Below are positions 17,047-17,072 of a stretch of 31,542 nt of DNA, piece by piece. Source of the DNA: a virus (lineage: Duplodnaviria; Heunggongvirae; Uroviricota; Caudoviricetes); the IMG/VR virus record IMGVR_UViG_2711768060_000013, positions 1 through 31,542 of that record. One strand, written 5' to 3'. Numbering within the stretch: position 1 is the stretch's first letter; the number at the start of each line of letters is the position of its first letter. Made by a program: the position numbers and the translations under genes. The notes beneath the pieces were generated by a model that was not told the origin of the DNA, ran no database searches, and worked only from the letters and a program-made list of their open reading frames with translations.

Positions 17047-17072
17047 GAAAAAAAGCCGGATTTACCGGCTTC
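17047..17072 (-). terminator. intrinsic-terminator-like element downstream of F (minus strand reads AAGCCGG-TAAAT-CCGGCTT followed by T7); may alternatively be an activator site for the I promoter
   Basis: hairpin plus T-run read directly; identical copy at 24823-24848. Confidence 0.55.

Follow-up and report, generated by a model that had tools for sequence, protein, structure and literature searches.

The repetition of one 26-bp element at two places in a phage genome, once ahead of a head gene and once ahead of the endolysin gene, raises the question of whether such an element stops the transcript that runs into it, helps to start the transcript that follows, or serves in both ways. The window, i.e., the whole stretch of 31,542 nucleotides that was analysed, is a Mu-like prophage read backwards, and the minus strand is the coding strand for all convincing genes (Table 1). 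A sequence-only reading of this DNA had described the element as "terminator, activator site, or both," and here this choice is weighed against the anatomy of the element, the homologous region of phage Mu, and related loci.

An exact-match search of the whole window with AAAAAAAGCCGGATTTACCGGCTTCA (plus strand) returned two copies. The position given earlier for the second copy holds, whereas the first copy lies 1 nt to the right of the 17047-17072 that had been reported. Beyond these two copies, no 26-mer in the window matched the element even when 3 mismatches were allowed, and not one of 100 dinucleotide-preserving shuffles of the window contained a 26-mer match. The similarity between the copies extends over 42 nt at 90% identity (17036-17077 and 24811-24852; family D2 of the repeat finder). 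On the minus strand the element reads TGAAGCCGGTAAATCCGGCTTTTTTT, which has an 8-bp stem with 5 G-C pairs, a 5-nt loop, and a T7 run; the folding energy is -12.6 kcal/mol, with a z of about -3 against shuffles, and both copies were recovered by a consensus terminator scan. The hairpin-then-T7 structure previously read on the coding strand is thereby borne out. About 140 nt separate copy 1 from the stop codon of F, and it precedes the start codon of I (16998) by 50-75 nt; copy 2 begins 6 nt past the stop codon (24853-24855) of the Mor-family gene and precedes the start codon of the endolysin gene (24767) by 56-81 nt, in agreement with the distances to the two start codons that had been estimated before. 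A GC-rich stem-loop, an immediate U tract, and a location 3' of a stop codon on the transcribed strand are all present, as in an intrinsic terminator. No known RNA family was recognised when the whole window was scanned with Rfam, and neither intergenic region had a match in a DNA similarity search of the phage collection.

Table 1. Genes, element copies, and predicted regulatory features of the window, in the order of the minus strand
Feature	Position	Strand	Basis or detail
GemA	25299-25862	-	Pfam
Mor-family activator, 149 aa	24853-25302	-	Pfam Mor family, E = 8.8e-30
Element copy 2, 26-mer	24823-24848	-	Stem 24847-24840 with 24834-24827; loop 24839-24835; T7 24829-24823
Predicted Mor box, endolysin promoter, AATGA-AGCCGG-TAAAT	24835-24850	-	13 of 16 positions as in Mu Pm; PWM score 27.7
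Predicted -10 hexamer CACCAT, endolysin promoter	24807-24812	-	22 nt after the box, like Mu TATCCT
Inverted repeat GAAGCAGA(N11)TCTGCTTC	24780-24806	-	Directly after the -10 of the endolysin promoter
Predicted endolysin transcript start	about 24799	-	From Mu alignment; leader 32 nt; Shine-Dalgarno AGGTG
GH108 endolysin, first gene downstream of copy 2	24150-24767	-	Pfam
Mu portal	17969-19540	-	Pfam
Mu F	17212-18033	-	Pfam
Element copy 1, 26-mer	17048-17073	-	Stem 17072-17065 with 17059-17052; loop 17064-17060; T7 17054-17048
Predicted Mor box, I promoter, AGTGA-AGCCGG-TAAAT	17060-17075	-	14 of 16 positions as in Mu Pm; PWM score 27.9
Predicted -10 hexamer CATACT, I promoter	17032-17037	-	22 nt after the box, like Mu TATCCT
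Inverted repeat CCGTCG(N11)CGACGG	17007-17029	-	Directly after the -10 of the I promoter; 3' arm overlaps Shine-Dalgarno GGAG
Predicted I transcript start	about 17024	-	From Mu alignment; leader 26 nt; Shine-Dalgarno GGAG
Mu I-type protease/scaffold, first gene downstream of copy 1	16036-16998	-	Pfam
gpT major capsid, next after the I gene	15131-16036	-	Pfam
Mu-type baseplate genes gp43 to gp48	below 8807	-	Pfam
Third predicted Mor box, AGGGAAAACGGTAAATCT, in the gp45 gene (5933-6469)	6084-6101	-	16-bp box 6101-6086; PWM score 24.3

The gene immediately ahead of copy 2 bears on which activator could be involved. Its product shares 62% identity with Mu Mor and 32% with Mu C, and the stretch TVYKAI(K/R)RMRRL close to the C terminus is almost unaltered between the window protein and Mu Mor. 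A tblastn search of the 31.5-kb window with Mu C and Mu Mor as queries and E values up to 10 found no second Mor/C gene; Mu C recovered the Mor orthologue only (E = 5.5e-16, 32% identity), the next match having an E value of 0.88, and with neither query was any further match better than this. Related loci likewise contain a single Mor/C homologue in each fetched stretch, except Mu itself and locus L061. Judging from these protein comparisons, the activator concerned is the Mor orthologue and not C, so that of the two activators named in the sequence-only reading, Mor is upheld and C, for which the window holds no gene, is not. Since there is a single Mor/C gene and no C gene in the window, the cascade would run in two tiers (early, Mor, late) in place of the early, Mor, C, late order of Mu. 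The window protein carries QPDLF close to the C terminus, as does Mu C, with Mu Mor having QPSLL instead; according to a 2026 paper, QPDLF is the C-terminal motif with which the Mor/MuC family binds the sliding clamp (PMC12867686). Upstream of gemA, in a gap of 221 nt, there is an 80-amino-acid open reading frame on the plus strand (25914-26156) within an otherwise single-strand array, without a Pfam match. Three copies of TTTTGAAG, spaced by 20 and 12 nt, are located in the F-I gap upstream of copy 1 (17095-17134, minus strand). The equivalent position in Mu is that of the strong gyrase site between G and I.

In phage Mu the early transcripts reportedly end at the hairpin that follows mor, which TransTermHP annotation gives as a predicted terminator. 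The Mu sequence directly after mor, AAAGCCGGTTAATCCGGCTTTTTTT, aligns without gaps with the element of the window (GAAGCCGGTAAATCCGGCTTTTTTT), and record AF083977 has two annotations for this Mu sequence, namely a predicted terminator at 9179-9200 and the middle promoter Pm (9163-9233), to which it belongs in part. Mu Pm has G at -57, T at -56, and AAA at -55 to -53, and its Mor element covers 16 bp (-51 to -36, centre -43.5), in which a G/C-rich spacer of 6 bp separates two inverted repeats of 5 bp (PMC4390567), while the permanganate-reactive T residues of the bottom strand are located at -12, -4, -1, +1, +3, and +4 (PMC4287176). We reconstructed the Pm numbering on the Mu sequence from positional statements in PMC4390567 and PMC4287176, and only one register fits all of them, with +1 at position 9224 of AF083977, TATCCT as the -10 hexamer, and AGTAA-AGCCGG-TTAAT as the Mor box. 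This numbering, in which the box is offset from the hairpin, agrees with 6 of 6 reported permanganate positions. We rejected the alternative in which the Mor box is the hairpin dyad itself: +1 would then be position 1232 of L001 and -12 would be a G, contradicting the permanganate data.

By alignment with Mu, the predicted Mor box of the window spans the 5' stem arm and the loop together with the 5 nt that precede the hairpin, and the 3' arm with T7 corresponds to -35 to -24; the box is centred at -43.5 versus -38 for the hairpin. An activator site near -40 had been proposed earlier for the dyad, and a Mor-type site is indeed predicted at the element, but it is not the hairpin dyad itself, because the box is offset from it. 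Both predicted promoters display the features of the Pm type, i.e., a Mor box, a -10 hexamer at the Pm distance without a -35, and a cognate Mor gene. Neither copy has a -35 hexamer, the region concerned (CCGGCT) agreeing with TTGACA at 2 of 6 positions. The box dyad is weaker than that of Mu, with arms A(G/A)TGA versus TAAAT and 3 of 5 symmetric positions, and CACCAT, which has 3 of 6 consensus positions, makes a weak -10 hexamer. Features of a C-dependent late promoter are absent, the box being of the Mor type and not TTAT-N5-6-ATAA and no C gene being found in the window.

The window and Mu Pm thus share a near-identical core, and copy 2 occupies the same place as Pm, straight after the mor stop codon; the 22-nt spacing from box to -10 is the same, neither has a -35, and the activators are orthologous (62%). 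However, Mu Pm is a single copy that drives the middle operon ending in C, whereas the two or three Pm-type sites of the window directly precede the endolysin gene, the I/T head genes, and probably the baseplate genes, and there is no C gene. Besides, the left arm of the box is A(G/A)TGA in the window and AGTAA in Mu, one loop base also differs, and the window activator has QPDLF close to its C terminus, which Mu Mor does not. The late promoters of Mu (Plys, PI, and PP) stand at places equivalent to the window sites, i.e., ahead of lys, ahead of I, and within a tail or baseplate gene, although the internal one is located in N (gp43) in Mu and in gp45 in the window. Plys and PI have predicted terminators just upstream, as in the window, and the Mu late promoters have an activator box centred at -43.5 and a -10 hexamer but no -35 (PMC2582627), as predicted for the window sites. 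Their box, however, is the C box TTAT-N5-6-ATAA (PMC12867686) and not a Mor-type box, and they respond to C, not to Mor (PMC4287176). A Pm-type Mor promoter overlapping a terminator is already known; its placement directly ahead of the lysis and head operons, in a C-less setting, is new.

A scan of viral contigs with the Mor protein yielded 59 related loci, in which Mor is 59-99% identical. The element is located immediately upstream of the endolysin gene in nearly all 59 loci, even where an extra small gene follows mor. A search of the prophage and of related phages, the check named along with the sequence-only reading, thus gives two exact copies in the prophage and an occupied endolysin position in nearly all relatives. 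We calculated conservation as mean pairwise identity, in Pm numbering, for 49 unique endolysin-site 90-mers and 39 unique I-site 90-mers. Identity is low in the upstream flank (-75 to -52; 0.34 at endolysin sites and 0.44 at I sites) and again from -7 to +15 (0.42 and 0.45, respectively), and between these flanks it reaches 0.95 at endolysin sites and 0.85 at I sites in the Mor box (-51 to -36). The two site classes differ in the 3' arm and T run (-35 to -24), with identities of 1.00 and 0.67, and terminator-like structures are found at 49/49 endolysin sites versus 18/39 I sites. Among the endolysin sites, which follow the last early gene and mark the early/late boundary, a perfect hairpin with T7 to T9 is universal. 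At the I sites the 3' arm or the T run is lost in 21/39 cases, with GAA..CGGTWAAT being invariant; variants of the 3' arm include CCACTT, CTACTT, and CCTCTT, and a tract of mixed pyrimidines replaces the T run. The -10 hexamers of the relatives (e.g., CACTAT, CAAAAT, CAAACT, CACACT, TAAATT, CATACT, and GACACT) stand 22 or 23 nt past the box, and usually have A as the second and T as the sixth base, as judged by eye and not from a tabulation. On these alignments the relatives offer what is in effect a natural separation of function in the Pm architecture, since the box half persists at every site and the half that serves only to form an RNA hairpin and U tract persists invariably at the early/late boundary alone.

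The distribution of the element beyond these loci separates its generic part from its phage-specific part. A prophage of this type, at about 92% nucleotide identity, was found in 68 of 5426 complete E. coli genomes, and both copies are present in the one E. coli genome inspected. An exact scan for GAAGCCGGTWAATCCGGCTTTTTTT in one genome per species gave 19 matches, 15 of which are in Enterobacterales and adjoin mor/lys or F/I homologues (Klebsiella, Raoultella, Trabulsiella, Serratia, Pluralibacter, Brenneria, and Kluyvera). The other four (25-mer; L063, L070, L074, and L080) are in Bacteroidota genomes or MAGs with no phage genes nearby, 21-23 nt past the stop codon of a long same-strand open reading frame, and are apparently convergent ordinary terminators. 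Because these matches occupy an ordinary end-of-gene position, the hairpin with T7 is a generic terminator design, and the Mor-box context is phage specific.

One explanation would be that the element is a terminator only, i.e., a strong intrinsic terminator at operon ends, with late transcription coming from elsewhere, by read-through or antitermination. The canonical anatomy and the identical 25-mer at gene ends in four unrelated Bacteroidota genomes accord with this. From a terminator, however, sequence drift with kept structure is expected, but at the endolysin sites the sequence is instead invariant between flanks that are 34-42% identical. Furthermore, I sites lose the 3' arm or T run yet keep the 5' half together with 5 upstream bases, which is the Mu Mor box, and the spacing from the box to the -10 is constant at 22-23 nt. 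For the homologous Mu sequence, Mor-dependent promoter activity has been proven by experiment, and a third box, which is devoid of a hairpin, is conserved within gp45. We regard termination as the sole role of the element as quite improbable.

The third box emerged when a PWM built from 16 distinct versions of -51 to -34 was scanned across the whole window. Copy 1 and copy 2 ranked first and second (27.9 and 27.7), followed by the gp45 site (24.3), and the next best match scored 12.0. The gp45 box lacks both the hairpin and the T run and has TATTAT 23 nt downstream (6062-6057). In 42 of 44 related gp45 loci, it is the best match of the whole 3.5-kb locus, at the same position in the gene. Among 36 unique genes, the codons across the box are GGG in 36/36, AAA in 33/36, and AAT in 36/36, and valine is encoded by GTA or GTT only; for comparison, 103 columns of gp45 with a conserved amino acid have a mean top-codon fraction of 0.71, and only 12% reach 0.95. 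The gp45 box probably acts as a late promoter within the gene, from which the baseplate and tail-fibre genes would be transcribed. The Mu late promoter PP also lies within a coding gene, N. Given the conserved gp45 box and the location of PP in N, Mor-type promoters seem, from their predicted positions, to stand at places equivalent to Mu Plys, PI, and roughly PP. A 16-mer that resembles the element weakly, with 3 mismatches (TGAAGCCGTTAAGTCG), is found at 22107-22122 (minus strand) within a 99-amino-acid open reading frame. As a real site it was set aside as a chance match, with a PWM score of only 9.1 and a location inside the reading frame.

It might conversely be argued that the element is a promoter only, in which the hairpin symmetry and the T run amount to a Mor box with an A/T-tract spacer and bring about no useful termination. 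In Mu, bases immediately downstream of the activator box are reported to be critical for activation (PMC2582627), and the invariance of -35 to -24 at the endolysin sites could, at least partly, reflect promoter needs rather than termination. The compensated stems without a T run at some I sites point in the same direction. On the other hand, I sites and the gp45 site do without the 3' arm and T run, which are hence unneeded for a Mor-type promoter, whereas a perfect hairpin with T7 to T9 is universal exactly at the early/late boundary; the stability of the hairpin and the U tract suit an efficient intrinsic terminator. Moreover, the I sites contain double compensatory stem changes (GGCGG/CCGCC and ACCGG/CCGGT) and one G.U variant, which argue for selection on an RNA hairpin and show, as a reading of aligned sites, that the pairing itself is probably selected in some lineages. 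A promoter without terminator function is, in our judgement, unlikely.

The I sites of eight relatives (L054, L056, L022, L023, L031, L038, L039, and L041) keep the stem by compensatory or G.U changes while the T run is degraded. A hairpin without an intact T run may have a role beyond canonical termination at some I sites.

Finally, the two copies might be a non-functional repeat, produced by recent duplication, gene conversion, or a small mobile repeat, as their identity over 26 nt and 90% identity over 42 nt would allow. However, dozens of divergent relatives have the element at the same two positions, between flanks that cannot be aligned, the element is bordered by neither target duplications nor terminal repeats, and the likeness past the 26-mer is confined to the spacer up to the -10 hexamer. 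Such an origin is hardly credible. Between the T run and the -10 stands TGCCT (24817-24821 and 17042-17046, minus strand), which corresponds to -22 to -18 of endolysin-type sites and is kept across divergent relatives; the copies resemble each other past the 26-mer because this motif lies in the spacer.

We consider it likely, from the compared sequences, that an intrinsic terminator and a Mor-dependent promoter overlap in the element, as part of a two-tier cascade that lacks C. Of the options left by the sequence-only reading, "both" is thus the favoured one, on account of the hairpin with T7 past mor, the terminator-like structure at 49/49 endolysin sites, and the homology to Mu Pm. The I sites in which stems are compensated despite a degraded T run count against this dual reading, since a pure terminator role of the hairpin does not explain them.

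The leaders that follow the predicted promoters contain a further symmetric feature. An inverted repeat directly follows each predicted -10 hexamer (Table 1), and Mu has a counterpart, TGATGA...TCATCA. The 5' arms lie upstream of the predicted transcript starts, and the 3' arms adjoin or cover the Shine-Dalgarno sequence. Single-sequence folding predicts related leaders (L003-L060) to be more stable than shuffles, with a mean z of about -2.7; RNAalifold on MAFFT leader alignments, which are not structure aware, found only 4 pairs in the I leaders and no pair in the endolysin leaders. From pairing probabilities, the Shine-Dalgarno sequence is predicted to be fully paired in the read-through RNA, and much freer in the promoter-started RNA, for 19 of 37 related I leaders. 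Such hiding is not predicted for the I leader of the window lineage (unpaired probability, 0.44 versus 0.49) or for endolysin leaders (0.39 versus 0.35). McPheeters et al. reportedly found in 1986 that the ribosome-binding site of the phage T4 lysozyme gene e is masked in early read-through RNA, whereas the late transcripts begin within the hairpin. The predicted starts considered here likewise lie within inverted repeats, and the pairing in many related I leaders is alike, whereas the T4 pattern of hiding is not predicted for the lineage of the window or for endolysin leaders. We treat read-through RNA that might hide its ribosome-binding site in the style of T4 gene e as a lead only, resting on folding models.

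Taken together, we infer Mor binding, the transcript starts, and the efficiency of termination from Mu and from conservation, and propose the following mechanism. Copy 2 would terminate the early operon, which runs from the transposase through gemA and mor. Once accumulated, Mor would bind the box that overlaps the 5' half of the terminator and recruit sigma-70 RNA polymerase. In Mu, recruitment of the polymerase involves contacts with alpha-CTD and with region 4 of sigma, and a 2025 preprint describes Mor as a tetramer when bound. The polymerase would use the -10 hexamer 22 nt downstream, with no need for a -35, and start about 26 nt (I) and about 32 nt (endolysin) before the start codons. 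The Mor-dependent start at copy 2 would lead to transcription of the lysis and packaging operon, and copy 1 would end this operon (lysis, terminase, portal, and F) and restart transcription for the protease/scaffold and capsid, which are needed abundantly. The box inside gp45 would provide an extra start for baseplate and fibre genes.

A more elaborate version, which we put forward only tentatively and hold to be rather doubtful, is a C-less cascade in which a Mor with QPDLF switches on three late operons and the boundary boxes combine the activator site with a terminator and a leader hairpin, so that read-through RNA is both terminated and silenced. If this is true, the layered cascade would constitute a three-layer fail-safe against premature lysis, in which only Mor-initiated RNA is translated.

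For the Mu-like prophage family of Enterobacterales to which the window belongs, which is common and unstudied, these results provide a regulatory annotation grounded in Mu experiments, covering where late transcription is expected to start, which protein is expected to activate it, and where early transcription is expected to stop. The Mor-box half is kept at all three classes of site, and the 3' arm with the T run is kept only where a stop is useful. The results also suggest that the three-tier cascade of Mu and the two-tier cascade of the window use the same promoter module at different steps, and the shared module informs how phage regulatory cascades may gain or lose a tier.
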